DNA of 64,000 nucleotides. It comes from Ostreococcus lucimarinus. Its lineage: Eukaryota. The notes below the pieces were generated by a model, which had not been told where the DNA came from, searched no databases, and saw nothing but the letters and a program-made list of their open reading frames with translations. Where the stretch lies: assembly GCA_000092065.1 (NCBI GenBank), contig CP000583.1; one strand, 5' to 3'. Of the stretch, positions 8,489-37,559 are shown piece after piece. Position 1 is the first letter of the stretch. The number at the start of each line of letters is the position of its first letter. The position numbers and the translations under genes were made by a program.

Positions 8489-11400
8489 CTAACGACACAC
8501 GCTCAGCACGCCGTCGCATCTCAAAGTTGCGAATAAACGAGAACTCGACAAGAGCTGGATCGCGCAAAACGGCGTTTGCTCGCCGTACACGGAAAGTGGT
8601 GAAAATCTCGCGACCTTCTCGTTACCTGACGATGTCAAAGCAAACACGCCTATCGTCGCACCGCTCACACTGAATACATCACCCTTGGTGCTCACAGCGA
8701 TGTCTCGAACCTCGTGTTGATGACCTCGAAACGTGCGCACTCGGCCGTCGAAGCGTTTCTTAGCGTCGCCGCGGGTGTCGATCATGCGCACATCCCAAAG
8801 AGCCACAGTCATATCGTCTGAAGCGGTGAGAATTTCGTAAGATTTACTCGATGGCGAGACGATTTTGTTGACGCCACCGTCGTGCGCCTTGACGTCGAAT
8901 ACCACGCCCGACGTTCGTAAATCGAACCCACACATGTATCCGAATCGATTGCTTGCGTACACCAAGCCATCCGTTGATGCATGCAACGCTTCCACCTCGG
9001 TGGCCGATGCGGCGTCGTCATTTGGACACTTGAATTGTCGAAATATTTTACCCGCCCCTGCATCTGCGATGAGGACTCCGCCGTTGGTCGTGCCGCCAGC
9101 AACGTAAGGCGAACCGCGAGCGCCGTCATAGACGCACATCGACTCGAATCCTCCCGCATCTCGCGAGTAAAACTGCCAGATGTGATCGCTATTCGTGTTC
9201 CAGACATGCATGTATCCTTTGTCGTCGCACGAACACGCCCTGGACACGTCACCTTCGTGGTCGTTGACAAAATCGAGAAACATGCTCGCCCTCACCGTAG
9301 CTTCGTGACCTGTGTAGGCTGACATCGCACCGCTCGAGTTTTCGCCCTCCGGACCGCTCGTACGCCACACACGAACGACGTTGTCGCCACGGGACGTCAC
9401 GCCGTTGGTAAGAAAGAGACGTTCATCAGCACTCACAGAAAGCGTTTGCGCCGACGGTCGAGCTATTCGACTGTGAACGCGCCACGACGTCAACGCCGCC
9501 ACATGTAGGCGCCATGGATCGTCGTCGACCGCTCCGGCATTCGCGAGCACGCTCGACATCGTTATCGTTTCAGTTTCATCATCTTCTTCGTGGTCTGACA
9601 CATCGCGTGGAAGCCAACCCCAAGCGCCAGCATTGTTCCTGTCGTTGCTCGAACGCTGATGCCACTCATCGAGGTGGTCGAGGACTGACGGCGCCGACGC
9701 AGTCGAGGCTTTGAAAATAAAAGCTTCAGACTGCGGACCAAGAGACTTCGCTAACGACGCTAAGATGTCGGCTACGAGAACGTGCGCTCCGGACGAAGTG
9801 TCGTCTCGATTGCTCTTTAATGCTTTGCGCAGAACGTCGACGATCCTTCGCAGCGCCACGGGCAACGGCGACGATTTTGCGATGAACGTCAACCCACACG
9901 TCACACGTGCTACTTCTTCTGCGCTGCAGAATTTGGGTTGCAAACATGCGATCAAGACTGGAATGAAAATGCGGTTGAACGTCGCCGCGCCCGTCGCTTT
10001 GCGAAGCGCGCGGAGGACAGCCATATCAAACAACTCGCGCTTCAATGTCGGGCCCTCGGCGTTTAAACAAGCGCTCGGCGCACTCACGGCGCGAAGAACA
10101 AGCGGTACTATCATGTCAATGACGTCCCGACGAGAGGCAACGCCGCACGCTGTCACCACTAAAGAAGACAAACACATCGCCACTTCCATCTCATCTTTCG
10201 CGGCGAGCGGTTTGCCCCCAACGTACGATTCGACTTCCGGGCATATATCGCCTAGGACGAGGTGTGCAACAGTCGGCGAAACTCCCTTGAGCGCGTCATC
10301 AGCGATCATAATCCTTGCCGCGCGCGATTCATGTGCGGTGCGCAAATTTCCAAGGACCATTGCCGCACTGCGGATATCTGTTGAAAACAACACCGAGTCG
10401 CGCACCGCGGAGGCGGCGATTGGCTTCGGCGAGTCCATTAATAGTTTTACCACATCTCGCGCTTCAACAGGCATGCGGTTCAGCCAATATTTCAGAGACT
10501 TGAAAAGCACTTGTGTGCGGTCGATATCATCGAATAAACCGTCACTGATCGACTTCATCGGTGATTTGTTAAAGAGGCCACTCACCGACGACGGCGTGTC
10601 GTCACTGTGCGCGGGACACGGCGCACCGGCGTATATGGCTCCCAATACGCGCCCGAGCGCTCGTAGATCTTTTTCTTGGACATTTCGTAGCGACGGTTCG
10701 GTAATCTTAATGATTGTTTCGACCGCATCGCACAGGTCATCCTCAGTGTTCACTGCTGGAACCGCGCGCGGAATTTCGCCAGCGCTTCGCTTTGGATGCG
10801 GCGCGTGAAAGATACAAAATCGTCCGCTCGATTTGAGCTTGCTCTTTTCGTCATCTCGCACCATGACATTCTTTGCGATAAATGCCGCCCTACCGTATGT
10901 GGCGTAACCAAAAGTCAAATCGATCCATGTGTGTAGATTATCGCTCACCGCTTTCGATTCGAGAGCTTCGCGATGAATTTTGATGAAGTAGTCTGCCGAA
11001 CCTTCGCCAACCTGAGACCAGGATGGCAAGGACAAATCGCGCATATCTTCGTGAATGGACGTGAACACGTTCGGGTTGAGGTAAAAGTCAATCGGTGCCT
11101 CGTCTGGCGACATTTCAAAAAGCCGCGCAATATCCTTGGGATATTCGTCGGCGACAAAGTTCGCTCGAACGACGCGCGCGAGCGTCGAGCGAGGCGTCCT
11201 TCGCGCCAATGCAATGCATGCGCCGAGTTCACTGAGACAATCGTCGCTCACGTGATGCGGCGGCGTCGTGTTTCGGTACGTAAAATCCAACTGTTCGTCC
11301 CCCTTGGTCAGACGCCATTTCGTTTTGCTCAAATCTCGCGCGCCGCGGAGAGAATCCGTCGAGGCGTCGAATGGAAACTCTTTAAAGTCTATCACCCACG

Positions 11401-12637: not shown

Positions 12638-13783
12638 ATGCGGCGACGGGAAGGCGCGGGACGACGGCAGAGTGAACTCGCGGAAGAGATCCGACGGCGG
12701 TCGAGCGATCTGCTGAAGAGCGCGAAGAAACGACCGAAGGCGGTGATGCGGCGCGCGGTGACGGGGAACGCGGATACGCGAGTGCGCGACTACGTCAAGA
12801 TTCCGCGCGTGATACGACAGATCGATAAGGTGTCGTTTTGCGCGGGTGTGTATGGGTTGATGATGACGGAATACATCGCGACGCGCGCGCCGGAGAAGTT
12901 TTGGTTGTTTTACGCGGTGGCGATGCCGGGGGTGTTTTTGGCGAGAGCGGTGTATTATCGAATGATTCGTTGGCAATACTTTTTGTACGATTTCTGTTAC
13001 TTTGCCAACGCCTCGGCGATGATGTTTCTGTGGCGATGGAAGAAGAGCGCGACGGTGTTTCGGTGCATCTTCGCGTTCGCGAACGGGCCGGTGTTGTTGG
13101 CGATTCCGTTATGGAGAAACTCGTTGGTGTTTCACAGCGTGGACAAGGTGTCGAGCATTTTCGTGCACGCGATGCCGTGCTTGATGACTTGGTGCGGTCG
13201 GTGGTACGGGTTTGGGAACGATGTGAATAGGCTGAGTGTGCGAGAGTTGGGCGCGGACGTGAGCGTTCTCACGGGATGTTTGGATCTCATGGTGTACCCG
13301 ATGTTCGCGTACTTGTTTTGGCAGGCGCTGTATTTGGCAAAGACGGAACTCATCGACAGAGTGAAGTTAGTGAGCGATCCGGCGCTCATGACTTCGCTGC
13401 GTTGGCTTGCGAGCGATCGAAACTCATCGGCGAATAAATACGCGTTGAAGATGATGCGCGGCATCGGATTGTTCGGCGCGGACGAGTTCTTCGACGCTGA
13501 ATCCATCAAGACGAAATTCGTCTTCGTCATGCTCCAGCTCGGGTACACCATCGTCACCTTCATCCCCATCCCGCTCTGTTACTCGAATTACTACGCCCAT
13601 ACCGCTCTCATGTGGGCCGCGTTCGGGTCATCGGTGTACAACGGCGCGGTGTATTACATCGACGTCTTTTCGCGCCGCTACGTCGAACGTCTCGCCATGG
13701 CGGAAGAATTAGAACGAGACTCACAAAGTCCCGGACTCTCCGAGTCCGAAATCGATCGATTGATGATGACCCCGATAGATTGA
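12638..13783 (+). CDS. Glycerophosphocholine acyltransferase (GPC1/GPCAT, DUF2838 family) membrane protein
   Basis: ATG at 12638. The multi-pass protein contains YFLYDFCYFANA and ANGPVLLAIPLWRNSLVFHSVDKVSSIFVHAMPC. These match my memory of the GPCAT family core (NGPLA..WRNSLVFHSxDKxTSxFIH). Confidence 0.75.
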   Translation: MRRREGAGRRQSELAEEIRRRSSDLLKSAKKRPKAVMRRAVTGNADTRVRDYVKIPRVIRQIDKVSFCAGVYGLMMTEYIATRAPEKFWLFYAVAMPGVFLARAVYYRMIRWQYFLYDFCYFANASAMMFLWRWKKSATVFRCIFAFANGPVLLAIPLWRNSLVFHSVDKVSSIFVHAMPCLMTWCGRWYGFGNDVNRLSVRELGADVSVLTGCLDLMVYPMFAYLFWQALYLAKTELIDRVKLVSDPALMTSLRWLASDRNSSANKYALKMMRGIGLFGADEFFDAESIKTKFVFVMLQLGYTIVTFIPIPLCYSNYYAHTALMWAAFGSSVYNGAVYYIDVFSRRYVERLAMAEELERDSQSPGLSESEIDRLMMTPID

Positions 13784-14051
13784 TGCACGCGATCGATGAG
13801 ATGGTTTGTCGTAAAATTTGTCGTGAAAACGCGCGCGAAATCGTCGCGACGCCGCGCGCCCGACCCGACGCCGAGAAGCGCGTTCCCGCGCCCTCAGCCC
13901 TCGTCGAAGACTTCGCCCGCCTCGTCCGCCGTCGCGTCGCCCGCCGGCTCGCGCTCGCCCTCTCGCTCCCACCGTCCGGTTTATCGACTAGTACATCGCG
14001 TCTACGCATAACAACAATCGATTCGGTCGCGTCTACGCTCTCGCGCGCGCC

Positions 14052-14321
14052 CTAGCTCGGCGCGTTCCCTTGCGCCCCCAACATCTGCCCCACGATCGCC
14101 ACGCTCTCCCAGTACTTCGCCGCGCACCGATCCACGCACGAGTTCTCCCCCACGTTCAGTTCGCCGTCCTTGAACTTCTTATCGATGCACTTCTCGTAGC
14201 ACGCGCCCACGAGCTTGTTGAACAGCTCCACGCGGTACTCCATCTCTTGTCCAGCCATGGCGAACGCCGCGTCGCGCTGTTCGGGCGTCATCGTCGGCGC
14301 GCCCTGTCCCGTCTGCGACAT
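14052..14321 (-). CDS. TIM10: Mitochondrial import inner membrane translocase subunit TIM10 (small Tim, twin CX3C)
   Basis: Internal ATG 14321 gives an 89-aa protein: MSQTGQG...EMEYRVELFNKLVGACYEKCIDKKFKDGELNVGENSCVDRCAAKYWESVAIVGQMLG. The twin CX3C motifs and the ELNxGENSCxDRCxxKYW block are typical of plant/algal TIM10. The upstream part of track ORF 14052..14471 is Arg-rich junk. Confidence 0.9.
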   Translation of the reverse strand: MSQTGQGAPTMTPEQRDAAFAMAGQEMEYRVELFNKLVGACYEKCIDKKFKDGELNVGENSCVDRCAAKYWESVAIVGQMLGAQGNAPS

Positions 14322-14471
14322 CGCGGTTTCTCTCGCCGCTCTCGCGTCGCGTCGTTCGCGTCGCTCGCTCGATCCGGCGTCGTCCGTCGTCCGTCGCGGC
14401 GTCGTCTGGCGGTCGCGCCGCCGCCGCGGCGTCGCGGTGGTTCGTCGCGCGCGCGTCGACCCTCGCGTCAC

Positions 14472-14509
14472 GGTTCGATTTTCGCGATCGAACCTCGACG
14501 CGTCGATCG
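14472..14509. promoter_or_regulatory. 38-nt palindrome-containing element, copy A, in the TIM10/ANTR bidirectional promoter
   Basis: GGTTCGATTTTCGCGATCGAACCTCGACGCGTCGATCG. The 8-bp arms GGTTCGAT and ATCGAACC are perfect reverse complements around a 7-nt spacer. Copy A is 36/38 identical to copy B at 20088-20125. Confidence 0.6.
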
Positions 14510-14725
14510 CCGCGCGTCGAGCGCGTCGATCGCGCGCGCGACAAAGAGACGCGCTGACTGTTTGCCCACACGCGAGTTCGACGCGCGCGCGAGGGGACCG
14601 ACGCGGCGGCCCGCACTCGACGTCGCGCGCGCGTCGCGGCGACGAGCGCGCGGCGGGAGGCGCGGGAGACGCGTCCGCGAGACGCGCGTCGACGCGGCGA
14701 TTCGATCGACGCGCGCGCGGGCGCG

Positions 14726-16462
14726 ATGGCGAGCGCGCGCGCGGGACTCGGCGGTCGGTCGTTAGGCGGCGACGGCGACGCGCGACGCGCGACGCGCGCG
14801 CGCGCGCGGATGCGCGGCGCGAGGCGCGACGGGAGACGCAGCGCGCGCGTCGAGCGCGCGCGCGCGACGGGAGGGACGCGCGCGCGCGACGGCGCGATGG
14901 GGCGCGCGAGAGGGGGACGCGGGGAGGAGGCGCGAGAACGCGGCGACGTCGCGGCGCGCGCGAGAGCCGAACGACGCGATCGACGGGACGCGGTCGCGGC
15001 GAGCGGGAGCTCGAAGACGACGCGCGAGGATCGGGACGAGGGCGAGGAGGATCCGGACGAGGCGTGGGCGTTTGAGTTTCCGAAGTCGGCGAGCGACGTC
15101 ACGACGCTCTGGCGAGGCGCGCCGAGTCGGTATCGCGTGCTCTTCGTCACGGTGTTCGCGTTCATCGTGTGTAACATGGATAAGGTGAATATTTCGGTGG
15201 CGATCATTCCCATGGCGCGGGAGTTCGGGTGGACGAGCACGCAGGCGGGGTTCGTGCAGAGCGCGTTTTTTTACGGTTTCGCGGCGTCGCAGTTACCGGG
15301 CGGGTACTTGTCGACGAAATTCGGTGGTGCCAAGGTGTTGCCGATCGGGATGTTGATTTTGTCGTTGGCGACGATCGCGATTCCGATCGTCGGCGTGAAC
15401 GAGCAGAGCATTTTCCTGTCGCGCGTGCTCGTGGGTTTGGGCGAAGGCGTGGCGCCGAGCGCGGCGACGGATATCATCGCGAGAAGCGTCAGCGTGGGCG
15501 AGCGTTCGCGCGCCGTCGGGTTCGTGTTCAGTGGGTTCAACATAGGTTCGGTGCTTGGTTTGGGGGTGGCGCCACTATTGATAGAGGCGACGAATTGGAG
15601 GACGGTGTTCGCATTCTTCGGCTCGTGCGGTTTAGTTTGGAGTTTTTGGGCTTGGAAGCTGTACGGCGACGGCGGGATGGTTGACGAAAGTTACAAGGAC
15701 GACGGCGTCACGGGTTTGACGGGTAAGCGCATATTCACCGTCGACGCAAAGGCGATAGCGAGCGGGAAGAGCCCGGCGGAAGACCCTCCGGTGCCGTGGG
15801 GGGAGTTTATATCGAATCCGTCGGTGCGCGCGCTCATGTACGTGCACTTTTGCAACAACTGGGGCTTCTACGTCCTACTCGCTTGGCTTCCGACGTACTT
15901 TACCGACGAGCTCGGGGTGACACTGACGAACGCATCGCTGTTGACTCTGCTTCCGCCGCTCGCGAACGTCGCGATGGCGTCCGTCGCCGGTCCGACTGCG
16001 GACCGCCTCATCGGCAGCGGCATGGAGATCACGAAGGTGCGTAAAACGATGCAAGCAGTCGCCTTCATGGGACCGGCGCTCGCCATGGGCTCGGCCGCAT
16101 TGGTAGATCAGCCGGTGGCGACCGTGGGTCTGCTCACGCTCGGCCTTTCGCTAGGCGCGTTTTCGTACGCGGGTTTGTACTCAAACCATCAAGATTTGTC
16201 GCCCAAGTACGCGAGTATCCTGTTGGGCATGACAAACACGTGCGGCGCGCTTCCGGGCGTCATCGGCGTTCCGTTGACTGGGTACTTGATCAAAGAAACG
16301 GAAAATTGGGAGCTTAGCATGTTCGTTCCGGCGATGTTCTTCTACTTTACGGGAACGCTCGTATTCAGCAAGTACGGCAGCGGCGATCGACAAGCGTTCA
16401 CGGGACAACCTATGCCCGAACCAGGCGAGATTCCGCCATCGTGCGATGGCGGCGGACATTAA
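14726..16462 (+). CDS. MFS anion transporter, SLC17 / ANTR (PHT4)-type, probable plastid transit peptide
   Basis: ATG at 14726, with an Arg/Ala-rich leader followed by 12-TM MFS topology. Contains FIVCNMDKVNISVAIIPMAREFGWTSTQAGFVQSAFFYGFAASQLPGGYLSTKFGGAKVL, typical of plant ANTR/PHT4 sequences as I recall them. Confidence 0.88.
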   Translation: MASARAGLGGRSLGGDGDARRATRARARMRGARRDGRRSARVERARATGGTRARDGAMGRARGGRGEEARERGDVAARARAERRDRRDAVAASGSSKTTREDRDEGEEDPDEAWAFEFPKSASDVTTLWRGAPSRYRVLFVTVFAFIVCNMDKVNISVAIIPMAREFGWTSTQAGFVQSAFFYGFAASQLPGGYLSTKFGGAKVLPIGMLILSLATIAIPIVGVNEQSIFLSRVLVGLGEGVAPSAATDIIARSVSVGERSRAVGFVFSGFNIGSVLGLGVAPLLIEATNWRTVFAFFGSCGLVWSFWAWKLYGDGGMVDESYKDDGVTGLTGKRIFTVDAKAIASGKSPAEDPPVPWGEFISNPSVRALMYVHFCNNWGFYVLLAWLPTYFTDELGVTLTNASLLTLLPPLANVAMASVAGPTADRLIGSGMEITKVRKTMQAVAFMGPALAMGSAALVDQPVATVGLLTLGLSLGAFSYAGLYSNHQDLSPKYASILLGMTNTCGALPGVIGVPLTGYLIKETENWELSMFVPAMFFYFTGTLVFSKYGSGDRQAFTGQPMPEPGEIPPSCDGGGH

Positions 16463-17039: not shown

Positions 17040-17209
17040 CGCGGCGCGCGCGCGTCTCGCGACGACGAATCGCGACTTTTCAAGAGCCGTTTTCGGAGCG
17101 TTACGACGCGACGACGCGACGACATAACAACGCGCGCGCGGGCAGACAAACGCCCGCGAGCGCGCGCGATCGTCGACGCGGCCGCCGTGTCGTCGAACCG
17201 CGTCGAGCG

Positions 17210-18292
17210 ATGGCGATTCAGACGCCGCGCGCGACGTCGGCGTCGCGCGCGCGAACGACGTTCGCGATCGGGCGAATCTTAAACGTGCACGCGCTGTACG
17301 AGTGGTTCGTCGCGCTGTTCCTGCGCTTCGTCACTCCTGGATGCCCGCGAGGGTTACCGAAGCTCGATCACGTGCGCGCGGTGTCGCGGCGGGTGACCCG
17401 CGTGCTCGGGCTGAATCCGAGCGCGTTGACACTGCAGGGGACGAATACGTACCTCGTGGGCACGGGACGCGAACGCGTGTTGATCGATTGCGGCGAAGGA
17501 CGGCGTGGGTACGCGAAAAATGTGATCGAGGCGATGCGTGCGAGCGGGTGTGAGCGCTTGAAGTGCGTGTTGCTGACGCATTGGCATCCGGATCACGTCG
17601 GCGGGTTGCGCGGGCTTCGCAAAGCGTTGGGCGAAAACGTGCCGGCGTATAAACGAATTCGTACGAGTAAGGGGGAGTACGACGCGCGCGAGGGGATGGT
17701 GAGCCCGTATAATGTTCGGGCGTATGTAGATATACAAGATGGAGACGTCATCGCGGTGCCCGGAGCGACGCTTCGAGCAATATACACCCCGGGGCACACG
17801 ACGGATCACATGTGCTTCGCGTTTGAGGAGGAGGGGGCAGTTTTCGCAGGTGATTGCGTTTTAAACGGGTCCACGAGCGATTTCGAGGACTTAACGATGT
17901 ATTCATCATCACTCACGACGATCAAGGACGAGTTGGAGTCTTTCAAGCGACGCGGAGTGCAGGAGAATGGATCGAACAGACTGTACCCGTCGCACGGCGA
18001 CGTCATCGAGGACGGCGCAAAGAAAATCGACGCCTACATCAATCACCGCGTTAGTCGAGAGACAATCTTACTGAACACCCTTCGCGAGCATCGTGAGTAT
18101 GGGATGACGGCGTGGGAGCTCACGCGCGCGGTGTACGCATCCCTCGTCTCCTTCGTCGTTCTCTACACGTCGTGTGTGAAAATCACACGACAACACATCG
18201 AAAAGATGATCAACGACGGCGTCGTGCGCGAGCGACGAGAAAAGGGAACGCTATGGGGCGAAGTCGTGCGTTATCACGCCGTAGATTCCTAG
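17210..18292 (+). CDS. Metallo-beta-lactamase fold protein, LACTB2-like
   Basis: In-frame ATG 17210 lies inside track ORF 16691..18292, whose upstream part is junk antisense to the neighbouring gene. Contains TNTYLVGTGRERVLIDCGEG and the HxHxDH motif LLTHWHPDHVGG. The later YTPGHTTDHMCF fits the MBL metal ligands. Confidence 0.85.
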   Translation: MAIQTPRATSASRARTTFAIGRILNVHALYEWFVALFLRFVTPGCPRGLPKLDHVRAVSRRVTRVLGLNPSALTLQGTNTYLVGTGRERVLIDCGEGRRGYAKNVIEAMRASGCERLKCVLLTHWHPDHVGGLRGLRKALGENVPAYKRIRTSKGEYDAREGMVSPYNVRAYVDIQDGDVIAVPGATLRAIYTPGHTTDHMCFAFEEEGAVFAGDCVLNGSTSDFEDLTMYSSSLTTIKDELESFKRRGVQENGSNRLYPSHGDVIEDGAKKIDAYINHRVSRETILLNTLREHREYGMTAWELTRAVYASLVSFVVLYTSCVKITRQHIEKMINDGVVRERREKGTLWGEVVRYHAVDS

Positions 18293-19148: not shown

Positions 19149-19310
19149 CCGTTCACGAAAGTGCGCGTCGTGCAGATTACAATAACCTCTCTCCTCTAAG
19201 AAGACGCACGAACGATGCCGTTCGCTCATTGTAACGAGCGATATCGTTCGCGCGCGCGATGCGCGGTGTCGTCGACGACGCAAACGTCTCGCGAGCGAGA
19301 GACGCGTCGC

Positions 19311-19688
19311 CTAGTTGTCGACGATCGTCACCTCAACCTCCACGCCCGGTTCGATGGAGATTGACGTGATTTGCTTCACCACGTCCGCCGGCGAGTGCAA
19401 GTCGATCAAACGCTTGTGGATGCGCATTTGAAAGCGATCCCAAGTGTTCGTACCTTCCCCGCACGGCGACTTGCGCACGGTGAGCTTCAAAACCTTCGTC
19501 GGCATGCGCACCGGGCCCTTCACCTTCAACCGCTTATCCTTCGCCCCGCGAATGAGATCCGCGCACACCTTCTCGAGGTTCTTCACGTTACGAGACGTGA
19601 GCGTGATGCGAATGCGGTGCATCTGCTGCGTCGACTCTTCAGTCTTCGCGGCGGGCGCCTTGTACGGCGCGGCGGCGGCGGCGGACAT
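19311..19688 (-). CDS. RPS20: Cytosolic 40S ribosomal protein S20 (uS10)
   Basis: Internal ATG 19688 gives 125 aa: ...[99 protein letters not shown]. This is textbook eukaryotic S20. Confidence 0.95.
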
Positions 19689-20087
19689 CTTCCTGCGCGT
19701 CCAGAAATCGCGTCCTACGTCAGTCATTATTCTCCCACTCGATTCCCATCGCGCGCGCGCCCTTCGTCCCATCGCGCGCGTCGTCGTCGTCCCATCCATC
19801 CATCCGCCCCGCGTTCTAGGGCTTTCGCCCCGATCGCGTCTCGCGCCGCCCCCCCTCGCGCGCGCGTCTCCCGCGTCTCCGCGCGCGTCGTCCTCGTCGT
19901 CGCGTTCGCACCTCTCGCGTTCTCGCGCGTTGGGTCCGAGTCGACGATCCGCTTCGGTGGATCTCGTCACTGAGACTGACGCGCGCGCCGTCGCGCGCGC
20001 GCGCGTCGCGCGCGCGTTGCGAATCACACCGCGCGCGGCGCCGATATCGCGTCGATCGCGCGTCCGTCGCGTCGATCGACGGTCGAG

Positions 20088-20125
20088 GGTTCGATTTTCG
20101 CTATCGAACCTTGACGCGTCGATCG
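20088..20125. promoter_or_regulatory. 38-nt palindrome-containing element, copy B, in the RPS20/PDH-E2 bidirectional promoter
   Basis: GGTTCGATTTTCGCTATCGAACCTTGACGCGTCGATCG, in the same orientation as copy A. It is embedded in a cluster of GCGTCGATCG repeats (20048-20165). Confidence 0.6.
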
Positions 20126-20284
20126 ACGCGTCGATCGCGCGATCGATCGCGCGTCGATCGCGTCGCCGTCGTTATCCAAAACGCCGATCTCGACGACGCG
20201 CGACGCGCGCGACGCGGCACACACCGACGCCGCGCGCCGCGCGACGACGTCGAACGAACGCAGGGCGGAGGAATCACGCGCACG

Positions 20285-21715
20285 ATGGCGTCGACGCACG
20301 CGTGCGCGTCGCGATTGACGGCGAGACGCGCGGGGAGTTTGAATGGTAAGGTTTTGCGGGCGCGCGCGACGGGCGGGGCGCGCGCGCGACGGGCGTGCGA
20401 GGCGAGGGCGGAGATCAAGGAGATCTTCATGCCGGCGCTGTCGTCGACGATGACGGAGGGGAAGATCGTGAGCTGGTTGATGGGCGAGGGGGACGCGATC
20501 GGGAAGGGGGACGCGGTCGTGGTCGTGGAGAGCGACAAGGCGGACATGGACGTGGAGTCGTTCGTGGATGGAATCATCGCGCACATCGCGGTCGGGGACG
20601 GGGAGGTGGCGACCGTGGGAGCGCCGATCGCGTACGTCGTCGATAGCGAGAGCGAGATCGAGGAGGCGAAGGCGAAGGCGGGCGGCGCGCCGGCGCCGGC
20701 GCCGGCCGCGCCGGCGGCCGCGGCGCCCGCGCCGGCGCCGGCGCCGGCGGCGCCCGCGCCGGCGGCGGCGGCGGCGGCGCCTGCACCGGCGGCGCCGGCG
20801 GCGCCGGCCGCGCCGGTGGCTTCCGGTCGCGTCGTCGCGACGCCGTACGCGAAGAAGCTCGCGAAGAAGCACAAGGTTGACCTCAAGACGCTCGCCGGTA
20901 CGGGCTTGAATGGCCGCATCACCGCGGTGGACATCGAGAACGCCGCGGGCTTGCCGCCGACGCCGAAGGCTGGCGCCGCGCCTGCCCCGGCAGCGGCCGC
21001 GGCCGCCGCACCGAAGAAGGCGGCCGCCGTCGCGCCTCCGGCGCCCGCCGGCACCGTCGTGCCGCTCTCGGGCATGCAAGCCGCCGTCGCGAAGAACATG
21101 TTGCCGTCTCTCTCAGTTCCGGTCTCCCGCATCGCGATGAGCATCTGCACCGACGAGTTCGACAAGTTGTACGCCACTCTCAAGCCGAAGGGTGTGACGA
21201 TGACCGCCTTGCTCACCAAGGCTGTCGGCGTCGCGCTCGCGCAGCACCCGATCATGTACTCCACCTACCACGACGGTAAGGGCATCGTGTACAACGACAA
21301 GGTGAACATCGCCGTCGCCGTTGCGCTCGATGATGGTTTGATCACGCCAGTCTTGAACGACACCGCCAACACCGATGTCTACCAACTCGGCCGCGAATGG
21401 AGCGGGCTCGTGAAGAAGGCGCGCAGCACTGGCTTGTCCCCGGCTGACTACGCCGGCGGTAACTTCACCATCTCCAACCTCGGCATGTTCGGCGTCGACC
21501 AATTCGACGCCATTCTCCCACCGAACCAAACCGCGATCCTGGCCGTCGGCTCTTCCAAGAAGACCGTCGTCCCGGTTGGTGGCATGATTGGCGTCAAGAG
21601 CTTCATGACGGTCAACATCGTCGCCGACCACCGTCACGTCAACGGTAACGTCGCGGCTGACTTCGGCAAGACTTTGCGCGAAGTGATCGAAAACCCTAGC
21701 AACCTGACGCTTTAA
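20285..21715 (+). CDS. LTA2: Dihydrolipoamide acetyltransferase, E2 of plastid-type pyruvate dehydrogenase complex
   Basis: ATG 20285 (MASTHACASRL... transit-like). Domains in order: a lipoyl domain IKEIFMPALSSTMTEGKIVSWLMGEGDAIGKGDAVVVVESDKADMDVESF, an Ala/Pro linker, a subunit-binding domain (VVATPYAKKLAKKHKVDLKTLAGTGLNGRITAVDIE), and a catalytic domain ending MTVNIVADHRHVNGNVAADF (DHR motif). Confidence 0.95.
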   Translation: MASTHACASRLTARRAGSLNGKVLRARATGGARARRACEARAEIKEIFMPALSSTMTEGKIVSWLMGEGDAIGKGDAVVVVESDKADMDVESFVDGIIAHIAVGDGEVATVGAPIAYVVDSESEIEEAKAKAGGAPAPAPAAPAAAAPAPAPAPAAPAPAAAAAAPAPAAPAAPAAPVASGRVVATPYAKKLAKKHKVDLKTLAGTGLNGRITAVDIENAAGLPPTPKAGAAPAPAAAAAAAPKKAAAVAPPAPAGTVVPLSGMQAAVAKNMLPSLSVPVSRIAMSICTDEFDKLYATLKPKGVTMTALLTKAVGVALAQHPIMYSTYHDGKGIVYNDKVNIAVAVALDDGLITPVLNDTANTDVYQLGREWSGLVKKARSTGLSPADYAGGNFTISNLGMFGVDQFDAILPPNQTAILAVGSSKKTVVPVGGMIGVKSFMTVNIVADHRHVNGNVAADFGKTLREVIENPSNLTL

Positions 21716-26511: not shown

Positions 26512-27022
26512 GGCGACGACGACGAGTGCGGGGGCGAGGGACGCGGTTCGAGGACGCGTCGTCTCGGCGACGCGAGGCGCGGGAGACGGGCGGCGACGCG
26601 CGGCGACGCGCGCGGGACGGCCGGGACGGATGCACGTGCCGAGCGACGCGTTTCAGGGACGGTCGCCGGAGATCGCGGCGAGGGACGCGCTCGGGAGGCT
26701 GTTCACGGCGGTGGCGGCGCGCGCGACGCTGGCGGAGACGCTCGAGCGCGAGGGCGCGGAGAGCGAGACGTATCTGGCGTTGAAAGCGTACGTGGACGCG
26801 CATCCGATCGGGAGGGACGGGAACGATTGGTTGCGGGGACTGATGGCGCGCGACGACGCGGGGAGTCGCGCGGCGGGGTTGCGCGTGTTGGAGGCGCGAG
26901 AGACGTACGCGAACGAGGTGTTTTCGTTCGAGGAGGTGCGGGAGATGGTGGAGAAGGCGGTGACGGAGGAAAACGATAAGTTGATGGCGGATTACGTGAA
27001 GAGAATGCTGCCGAAAATGTAA
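26510..27022 (+). CDS. RBCX: RbcX-like Rubisco assembly chaperone with transit-like leader
   Basis: In-frame ATG 26510 lies inside track ORF 25958..27022. ARDALGRLFTAVAARATLAETLERE...YLALKAYVDAHPIGRDGNDWLRGLMARD...GLRVLEARETYANEVFSFEEV...EENDKLMADYVKR parallels the RbcX helices as I remember them (QSYxTYQAVR..L.E.NP, HPI..xD.YL..LM.EN, LRI..VRE..AE, N..L...L). An alternative start is the downstream MHVPSD (ATG near 26630). Confidence 0.62.
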   Translation: MATTTSAGARDAVRGRVVSATRGAGDGRRRAATRAGRPGRMHVPSDAFQGRSPEIAARDALGRLFTAVAARATLAETLEREGAESETYLALKAYVDAHPIGRDGNDWLRGLMARDDAGSRAAGLRVLEARETYANEVFSFEEVREMVEKAVTEENDKLMADYVKRMLPKM

Positions 27023-37160: not shown

Positions 37161-37239
37161 CCCTCGTCCCTCGTCCCTCGTCCCTCGCGCGCGATCGACG
37201 CGCGCGATCGACGCGCGCGATCGACGCGCGCGATCGACG
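37161..37239. repeat. Promoter-region tandem repeats: (CCCTCGT)x3.5 then (CGCGCGATCGACG)x4
   Basis: The 7-bp units span 37161-37186. Perfect 13-bp units lie at 37188, 37201, 37214 and 37227. The array lies between the divergent TBC (ATG 37130) and hypothetical (ATG 37560) genes. Confidence 0.9.
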
Positions 37240-37559
37240 CTCGCGCGCGTCCGTCTCGCGCGTCTCGCGCGCGCGCGTCTCGCGCGTCCCGCGCGTCGAC
37301 CGAACGAATCGACGCGTCCGTCTCTCGGACGTCTCGGACGCGACGATCCGTCTCGGACGCGGAGACGCGCGACGCAGCGACGGCGCGCGCACACCGCGAC
37401 GCACGCGCGACGGCGAACGACGACGAACGACGTCCGCGACGCGCGCGCGCGAGACGGCGAACGACGACGCGCGCGAGACGGCGAAAAAAGGCGCGACGCA
37501 TCGCGAGACGACGGCGAACGACGGTTTGAGTTCTCGGAGGCGAACGAGCGACGCGCGCG

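Follow-up and report, generated by a model that had tools for sequence, protein, structure and literature searches.

A location close to promoters is typical of many MITEs, which are usually larger than 53-95 bp. The element described here, a 38-nt unit that occurs twice in a window of 64,000 nt from Ostreococcus lucimarinus, a marine green picoalga of the Mamiellophyceae (contig CP000583.1; the window is the whole stretch of DNA that was analysed), resembles MITEs and foldback elements in being part of a short, non-coding and lineage-specific palindromic module with inverted arms near promoters. It differs from them in that there are two copies, of 53-95 bp, whose arms consist of a generic promoter-island repeat, and in that no recognisable target-site duplication (TSD), no defined termini and no insertion polymorphism were seen. 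A second point of comparison is formed by the extra-TFIIIC (ETC) sites and B-box boundary elements of yeasts and mammals. For the yeast ETC sites a GGTTCGA B-box core and a location in divergent intergenes have been described, and the tabulated sequences, as we read the table, also depart from the full B-box consensus (PMC3395662). The element has the GGTTCGA core and the location between divergent Pol II genes in common with these sites, but it is not conserved, its B box agrees at 8/10 specified positions, and ETC sites do not feature an inverted pair of cores spaced by 7 nt.

Two processes of sequence turnover provide further parallels. In ectopic conversion and templated patch insertion (SDSA, template switching, polymerase-theta-type repair) the likeness lies in a sharp-edged, near-identical tract within non-homologous DNA, in the microhomologous low-complexity flanks, in the spacing of 5.6 kb and in the absence of the tract from the outgroup loci. 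The hairpin apex and the palindromy that extends beyond the tract are not predicted by a simple one-sided patch, and the direction of copying is in our case one that we infer. The turnover of minisatellites and microsatellites in CpG-rich promoter DNA is matched by the species-specific CGCGTCGATCG array on the 3' side, with its strain-variable unit indels, whereas the 23-nt core of the element is not of low complexity and is not explained by slippage.

The 38-nt unit, GGTTCGATTTTCGC[G/T]ATCGAACCT[C/T]GACGCGTCGATCG, is found on the plus strand at 14472-14509 (copy 1) and at 20088-20125 (copy 2). The copies have identical orientation, are separated by 5,616 bp on one chromosome, and agree at 36 of the 38 positions in the window and at 37 of 38 in some strains. 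Each copy starts with a 23-nt core, GGTTCGATTTTCGCKATCGAACC, i.e. GGTTCGATTTTCGC[G/T]ATCGAACC, on the plus strand at 14472-14494 and 20088-20110, and both cores then run into T[C/T]GACGCGTCGATCG; the 38 nt of copy 1 thus read as the core plus TCGACGCGTCGATCG. The core can be divided into two arms that form a perfect 8-bp inverted repeat and a 7-nt spacer: GGTTCGAT / TTTCGCG / ATCGAACC in copy 1 and GGTTCGAT / TTTCGCT / ATCGAACC in copy 2. Its predicted RNA fold has an energy of -10.4 kcal/mol in copy 1 (z -4.0) and of -9.6 kcal/mol in copy 2 (z -4.6). The repeat is real and not an artefact of assembly, as both copies are present on one contig in independent metagenome assemblies (L001, L002 and L010).

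No further copy of the 23-nt core was detected in the 64 kb when up to three mismatches were allowed, a level at which dinucleotide-preserving shuffles also gave 0 matches. Neither up to six substitutions nor a flexible loop with one mismatch per arm revealed a credible third copy in the window. The lone flexible match, at 61381-61400, is located in frame within a coding ORF, is compatible with chance, and was rejected as a third copy. The first-pass annotation had listed two copies in the same orientation at these coordinates, 36/38 identical, with a perfect 8-bp inverted repeat around a 7-nt spacer and no other occurrence of the core in the window. All of this is borne out, and the inverted repeat folds better than every shuffle.

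Beyond the window, an exact scan of a metagenome collection with the 22 specified bases retrieved four contigs, all of which represent this very locus (99.1-99.6% identity). The five site-hits are spread over the two known sites, about 2.5 per site, so that the number of further exact copies in the genome would be bounded at roughly one or fewer if coverage is uniform. The scanned collection is a subset: the JGI contigs L025 and L031 carry copy 2 and are not among the scan matches. The viral and prokaryotic genome collections yielded 0 matches to the exact core, an extra 7.5 kb to the left of the window contained no copy, and a search of the literature found no description of the motif for the Mamiellophyceae.

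Both copies are located in intergenes of divergently transcribed genes. The left neighbour of copy 1, on the minus strand at 14052..14321, encodes a TIM10-family protein of 89 aa (PF02953, zf-Tim10_DDP), and its ATG is 151 nt from the start of the element. The right neighbour, on the plus strand at 14726..16462, encodes an MFS/ACS-family anion transporter of 578 aa (ANTR-like, with an MFS_1 match), for which the best named relative is found in Bathycoccus prasinos (54-58% identity); for SHMT this is Mamiellaceae sp. RCC2288 (80%). Copy 2 is flanked on the left by RPS20, on the minus strand at 19306..19727 (PF00338, Ribosomal_S10), in which a short first exon, ATGACTGAC, probably precedes an intron. 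On its right is a gene for a dihydrolipoamide acyltransferase of the PDH-E2 type, on the plus strand at 20285..21715, with Biotin_lipoyl, E3_binding and 2-oxoacid_dh domains. The domain matches agree for all four genes with the calls TIM10(-)/ANTR(+) and RPS20(-)/PDH-E2(+) that had been made earlier. The distance from the element to the plus-strand ATG, formerly put at about 175-250 bp, measures 254 nt for ANTR (ATG at 14726) and 197 nt for PDH-E2 (ATG at 20285), counted from the start of the element. The CpG-rich islands in the intergenic and 5' regions have a G+C content of 70-78%, versus 52-62% for coding DNA.

A difference in gene content was observed next to TIM10. In the window species some 270 nt separate the DUF2838 gene from TIM10 (13783-14052), whereas in all the relatives a gene for an ankyrin-repeat protein of 470-513 aa is located between the two (L003 7870-9342, L006 7940-9481, L007 7467-8882, L013 7882-9354 and L014 1012-2511). 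The ankyrin-repeat gene appears to have been lost in the window species.

The last 13-15 nt of the 38-mer (GACGCGTCGATCG) form the first unit of a tandem array, which follows on the 3' side of each copy. The array of copy 1, on the plus strand at 14495..14540, has CGCGTCGATCG-type units with a period of 23 (2.0 copies, 91% matches), and that of copy 2, on the plus strand at 20115..20162, has the unit CGCGTCGATCG with a period of about 12 (4.2 copies, 92% matches). The CGCGTCGATCG 11-mer occurs 15 times in the window, where 1.7 occurrences are expected, and is spread over six promoter islands; in the related species there are 0-1 occurrences in the ~80 kb examined, which points to a lineage-specific turnover of low-complexity DNA. 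Unit-level indels among strains in the outer arms of copy 2 indicate that the arrays are unstable. Of the 38 nt, the 23-nt hairpin alone is therefore unique to the two sites, and the right half of the 38-mer is the first unit of a species-specific promoter-island repeat.

Repeats were also observed elsewhere in the window. Another promoter island contains, at 37186-37263, a tandem array of 4-5 copies of the 13-nt unit CGCGCGCGATCGA; it adjoins a palindrome of 35-49 nt and belongs to the CGCGTCGATCG-type repeat class that is specific to the window species. At 52254-53351 three tandem copies of a 300-nt segment, spaced at 399 nt and 94-95% identical, are found inside a long minus-strand ORF (~1536 aa) and constitute a recent internal coding repeat.

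At the left edge of the element the identity between the two loci falls abruptly. A gapped alignment continues through the CGCG DNA, yet the scores of the flanks outside the 38 nt, 28 and 32, are at the background of the promoter islands (null median 27, 95th percentile 39). A longer homology between the loci was consequently rejected, and no more than ~38 nt plus a shared repeat type is claimed as homologous. Within that stretch the near-identity extends from stem and loop into the first repeat unit, and its left edge is sharp; this means that the copies are related by common descent and not by convergence.

In both promoters the core is the apex of a much longer, imperfect palindrome that is centred on it and keeps the 7-nt spacer. 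At copy 1 the palindrome covers 14450..14516, with arms of 30 nt (14450-14479 and 14487-14516) that are 80% complementary, and at copy 2 it covers 20052..20146, with arms of 44 nt (20052-20095 and 20103-20146) that are 82% complementary; neither is assigned to a strand. At each copy 16 of the 22 flank positions outside the 8-bp stem can pair, a value that is reached by 0.12% of the null promoter-island centres, and the 28 of 36 positions counted at copy 2 are reached by none. The corresponding long hairpins are predicted to fold at -65.5 kcal/mol for the 106 nt of copy 1 (z -3.8) and at -79.8 kcal/mol for the 111 nt of copy 2 (z -7.2), about equally well on either strand. The long palindromic context would come largely from the arrays, which are built of a nearly self-complementary unit. 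A high density of palindromes as a trait of the whole species was considered and rejected, as a strict census showed short CpG-rich palindromes to be similarly dense in the window and in the relatives; this census is a rough control, whose scoring missed both elements.

The syntenic loci were available from four related lineages of the Mamiellophyceae (L003/L013, L006, L007/L008 and L014), the transporters of which are 74-84% identical to that of the window. With up to six substitutions allowed, none of the four lineages has the element in its TIM10/ANTR or RPS20/PDH-E2 promoter, and these promoters contain no comparable long palindrome either. The origin of the element is thus lineage-specific. 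One of the outcomes that the first-pass annotation had itself named as refuting, absence from orthologous promoters, was thus observed. A genome-wide promoter family does not show up: the scanned metagenomes have the exact core at this locus and nowhere else, so that no positional bias could be plotted.

Of the dyad, only the GGTTCGA half-site persists in the relatives, namely in the PDH-E2 promoter of L003 and L013. There it is part of the motif GGTTCGA[C/T/G]GAGTCCCGA[A/C]TCGTCGATG (GGTTCGA[C/T/G]GAG...GTCGATG), about 200 nt upstream of the ATG, which matches the distance of copy 2. A different motif, GGTGGTTCGTCG...TCGACCCT, adjoins copy 1 on its left, on the plus strand at 14436..14465, and overlaps the left arm of the copy 1 palindrome. 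Judging from short alignments it is probably an ancestral motif of the TIM10/ANTR promoter, with the counterparts GGGGTTCGTCGACCCT in L014 and GGGTTCATCGACACCCCT in L006, all at 105-118 nt from the TIM10 ATG. The presence of the GGTTCGA motif in the PDH-E2 promoter of L003 and L013, and of an old motif beside copy 1, suggests that copy 2 is the older site. It would have grown from an older site in its own promoter, and copy 1 would be a later arrival beside an older motif.

Several other features of the RPS20/PDH-E2 intergene emerged from the comparison with the relatives. Their PDH-E2 promoters contain GAGTC(N2)GACTC / TGACTC palindromes that resemble bZIP/GCN4-type sites (L003 ~15440-15455 and 15500-15610, L013 ~15450-15480 and 15540-15580, L008 ~9050-9075). 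In L003 the block that holds GGTTCGA has undergone a 56-nt tandem duplication, and in the window species the whole region of the bZIP-like palindromes is replaced by CGCG/TCGATCG low-complexity DNA. Telo boxes (AAACCCTAA) are known from the promoters of plant ribosomal-protein genes. A telo-box-like motif is kept across all the related species just upstream of the RPS20 start: in the window it is located at 19816-19828 (plus strand TCTAGGGCTTTC), and on the gene strand it reads AAGCCCTAGAA in the window, AAAACCCTAGAA in L003 and L013, and AGCCCTAAACCC in L006 (sites at ~15125-15140 in L003, ~15103-15116 in L013, ~17628-17642 in L006 and ~14666-14678 in L007). Between RPS20 and PDH-E2 there is also a conserved non-coding block, GGTCCGAGTCGACGATCC-loop-GGATCTCGTCACTGAGAC, at 19930-19975 of the window (L003 ~15240-15285, L006 ~17762-17805, L007 ~14785-14820, L008 ~8716-8762). 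Its 5-bp GATCC/GGATC stem and the flanks are kept in all species, and the loop of 5-8 nt varies. The block, which has no match in Rfam, may represent a small structured RNA or serve as a binding site with dyad symmetry.

Within the species, copy 1 was present in all 14 population contigs that cover it, without a single SNP, while the rest of the 404-nt intergene contains some 21 variable sites. Copy 2 was present in 13 of 13 contigs, with two polymorphisms. Position 20112 (position 25 of the element) is T/C polymorphic, and the contigs L011 and L024 carry the C that is also found in copy 1. In addition, L024, a divergent strain, has the substitution A20108C, which breaks a pair of the stem as well as the half-site and is uncompensated. 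Neither the 14 contigs of copy 1 nor the 13 of copy 2 include an empty site or any other sign of an insertion polymorphism. Taken together, 2 of 76 element positions are variable versus ~34 of ~700 flank positions, too few sites for a test. The polymorphism of the element is not detectably reduced relative to its flanks, at low power, and the inference of selection from these counts was rejected for the same reason.

We favour, with moderate confidence, the explanation that the repeat arose in this lineage when a short patch was copied from one self-complementary promoter tract to another at a distance of 5.6 kb, through ectopic conversion or template switching, and that it is probably near-neutral. 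One local copying event in the lineage of the species would then relate both sites by descent. The patch would have consisted of the 23-nt hairpin apex and the first CGCGTCGATCG unit, possibly ~70 nt in all, and would have been copied between CpG-rich tracts. The transfer would probably have occurred by ectopic gene conversion over a short tract, or by a template switch while the DNA was being repaired or replicated, with the microhomologous CGCGTCGA(T)CG repeats on either side of the two sites providing the priming. The RPS20/PDH-E2 promoter, with its more complete palindrome, would be the likelier donor, and the TIM10/ANTR promoter, where the patch abuts an older conserved motif, the likelier recipient; the direction is weak, as it depends on short, low-complexity alignments. 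At both sites the element would lie upstream of the transcription start, where it would be tolerated, and would have no dedicated function.

This explanation is in line with the existence of two copies only, with their proximity and common orientation, with the lineage-specific presence of the element, with the microhomology of the flanks, and with the lack of any visible constraint. A discrete converted tract between microhomologous flanks is expected to have a sharp edge and background-level flanks. Indeed, the tract is identical at 36-37 of 38 positions, its flanks score at island background, CGCGTCGATCG-type arrays are present beside both copies, and the tract is missing from the putative recipient locus in the outgroups. 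Some observations argue against patch copying. The excess of complementarity in the left flank of both copies suggests that possibly a whole palindromic module is shared, instead of a one-sided patch. Conversion normally requires a longer homology than these microhomologies provide. The two copies have the same position in a divergent promoter, the same orientation and a similar distance to the ATG (197-254 nt), and a functional site would look alike. Moreover, GGTTCG-type motifs are seemingly ancestral in both promoters, which hints at a real half-site.

The latter two observations also fit a dyad-symmetric site for a dimeric transcription factor, with GGTTCGAT as its half-site, that was recently duplicated and jointly controls the plus-strand genes, or else the two divergent pairs. 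We consider such a site unlikely, despite the perfect 8-bp dyad with its fixed 7-nt spacer, the location of both copies in divergent promoters in one orientation at 197-254 nt upstream of the plus-strand ATG, the GGTTCG-containing motifs at similar distances in the same promoters of the relatives, and the invariance of copy 1 in 14 contigs. A factor site would be expected to recur, but no other copy, not even a degenerate one, is present in 64 kb with ~18 promoter islands, and intergenic DNA outside the elements, with 3 occurrences of GGTTCGA in 12.6 kb, hardly exceeds the density of 0.16 per kb seen in genes. The site is missing from the orthologous promoters, shows no detectable reduction of polymorphism, and in one strain has a SNP in the half-site. 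Copying, in addition, accounts better than half-site selection for the identity of the loop and of the 3' unit. Apart from the elements, two intergenic GGTTCGA sites, at 17188-17207 and 26540-26559, have the 12-mer GACGCGGTTCGA in common, with minus-strand orientation at 17193, and one of the two is located in a divergent promoter between the element copies. They may represent a weak recurring motif or an effect of composition. The B box GGTTCGANTCC gives rise to a further reading: its invariant core, GGTTCGA, is matched at 7/7 positions on both strands (8 of the 10 specified positions for the full consensus), and both copies lie between divergently transcribed Pol II genes. Two inverted B-box cores might thus recruit TFIIIC without Pol III and form an ETC-like boundary between the divergent genes. 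This we regard as very improbable: the resemblance is a post hoc observation, the element lacks the TCC of the B box, other promoters show no enrichment of GGTTCGA, and yeast ETC sites are conserved among related species, unlike the element. There is no A box nearby either: 30-60 nt upstream of the B box the best candidates for TRGCNNAGTGG have 3 mismatches in 9 specified positions. A tRNA, another Pol III gene or a known RNA was rejected on the basis of ARAGORN (0 genes), Rfam (nothing at gathering scores) and this A-box scan. The two kinds of explanation can be combined, in that the hairpin core might be a functional lineage-specific module (a double inverted B-box for TFIIIC, or a site for another dimeric factor) which organises a boundary or a bidirectional promoter and spreads by patch copying in a very compact genome; we think this quite improbable.

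The palindromic anatomy, with arms of 30-44 nt and a flank complementarity well above background at both sites, would also suit a miniature foldback (MITE-like) element of ~53-95 bp that has its arms as terminal inverted repeats and was inserted independently at the two promoters. The lineage-specific presence and the promoter-proximal location agree with such an origin. It is nevertheless quite unlikely, since there are two copies only, and the exact core did not turn up elsewhere in the metagenome collection or in the related species. The ends carry no recognisable TSD and dissolve into CGCG/TCGA low-complexity DNA, in which short duplications would be unrecognisable. The arms, which lack defined outer ends, are built of a unit frequent in other promoter islands, the left arm of copy 1 overlaps an apparently ancestral motif, the 13-14 contigs show no presence/absence polymorphism, and the size is below that of usual MITEs. 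The stability of the two long predicted hairpins, which exceeds that of the shuffles by far (z -3.8 and -7.2, as given above), together with weak matches to generic models of miRNA precursors, might be taken to indicate a structured RNA, be it the precursor of a small hairpin RNA or a long 5'-UTR hairpin of the plus-strand mRNAs. As DNA symmetry predicts, however, both strands fold about equally, and the permissive Rfam matches remain far below the gathering scores (e.g. 37 bits vs 268). The sole polymorphism of the stem (A20108C, L024) is uncompensated; where the copies differ from each other, they do so in the loop or beyond the stem; no covariation is available for counting, and the orthologues lack the structure. 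In cap-dependent initiation very stable hairpins in the 5' UTR block scanning, and hairpins as stable as these would be expected to stop the ribosome if they lay there. A structured RNA is therefore extremely unlikely. The first-pass annotation had left a factor site or core element, a MITE-like insertion and a 5' RNA open. Of its proposals the idea of a recent insertion or copying stands, with local patch copying in the place of transposition; the RNA finds no support, having no Rfam match, an uncompensated SNP in the stem and an expected block of scanning.

If patch copying is indeed the origin of the repeat, the locus would provide a clean, small example of the turnover of promoter DNA that is CpG-rich, repetitive and self-complementary, in an alga with a compact genome, and would show that patches copied between nearby promoters can make long palindromes capable of forming hairpins. 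This would concern promoter evolution as well as genome stability, and would not be surprising. If instead the core is bound by a factor, a regulatory or boundary site would have been duplicated between unrelated promoters in a wild and abundant marine species. Finally, should the core be a functional module that spreads by patch copying, a cis-regulatory element would have been caught propagating between neighbouring promoters without a transposase.
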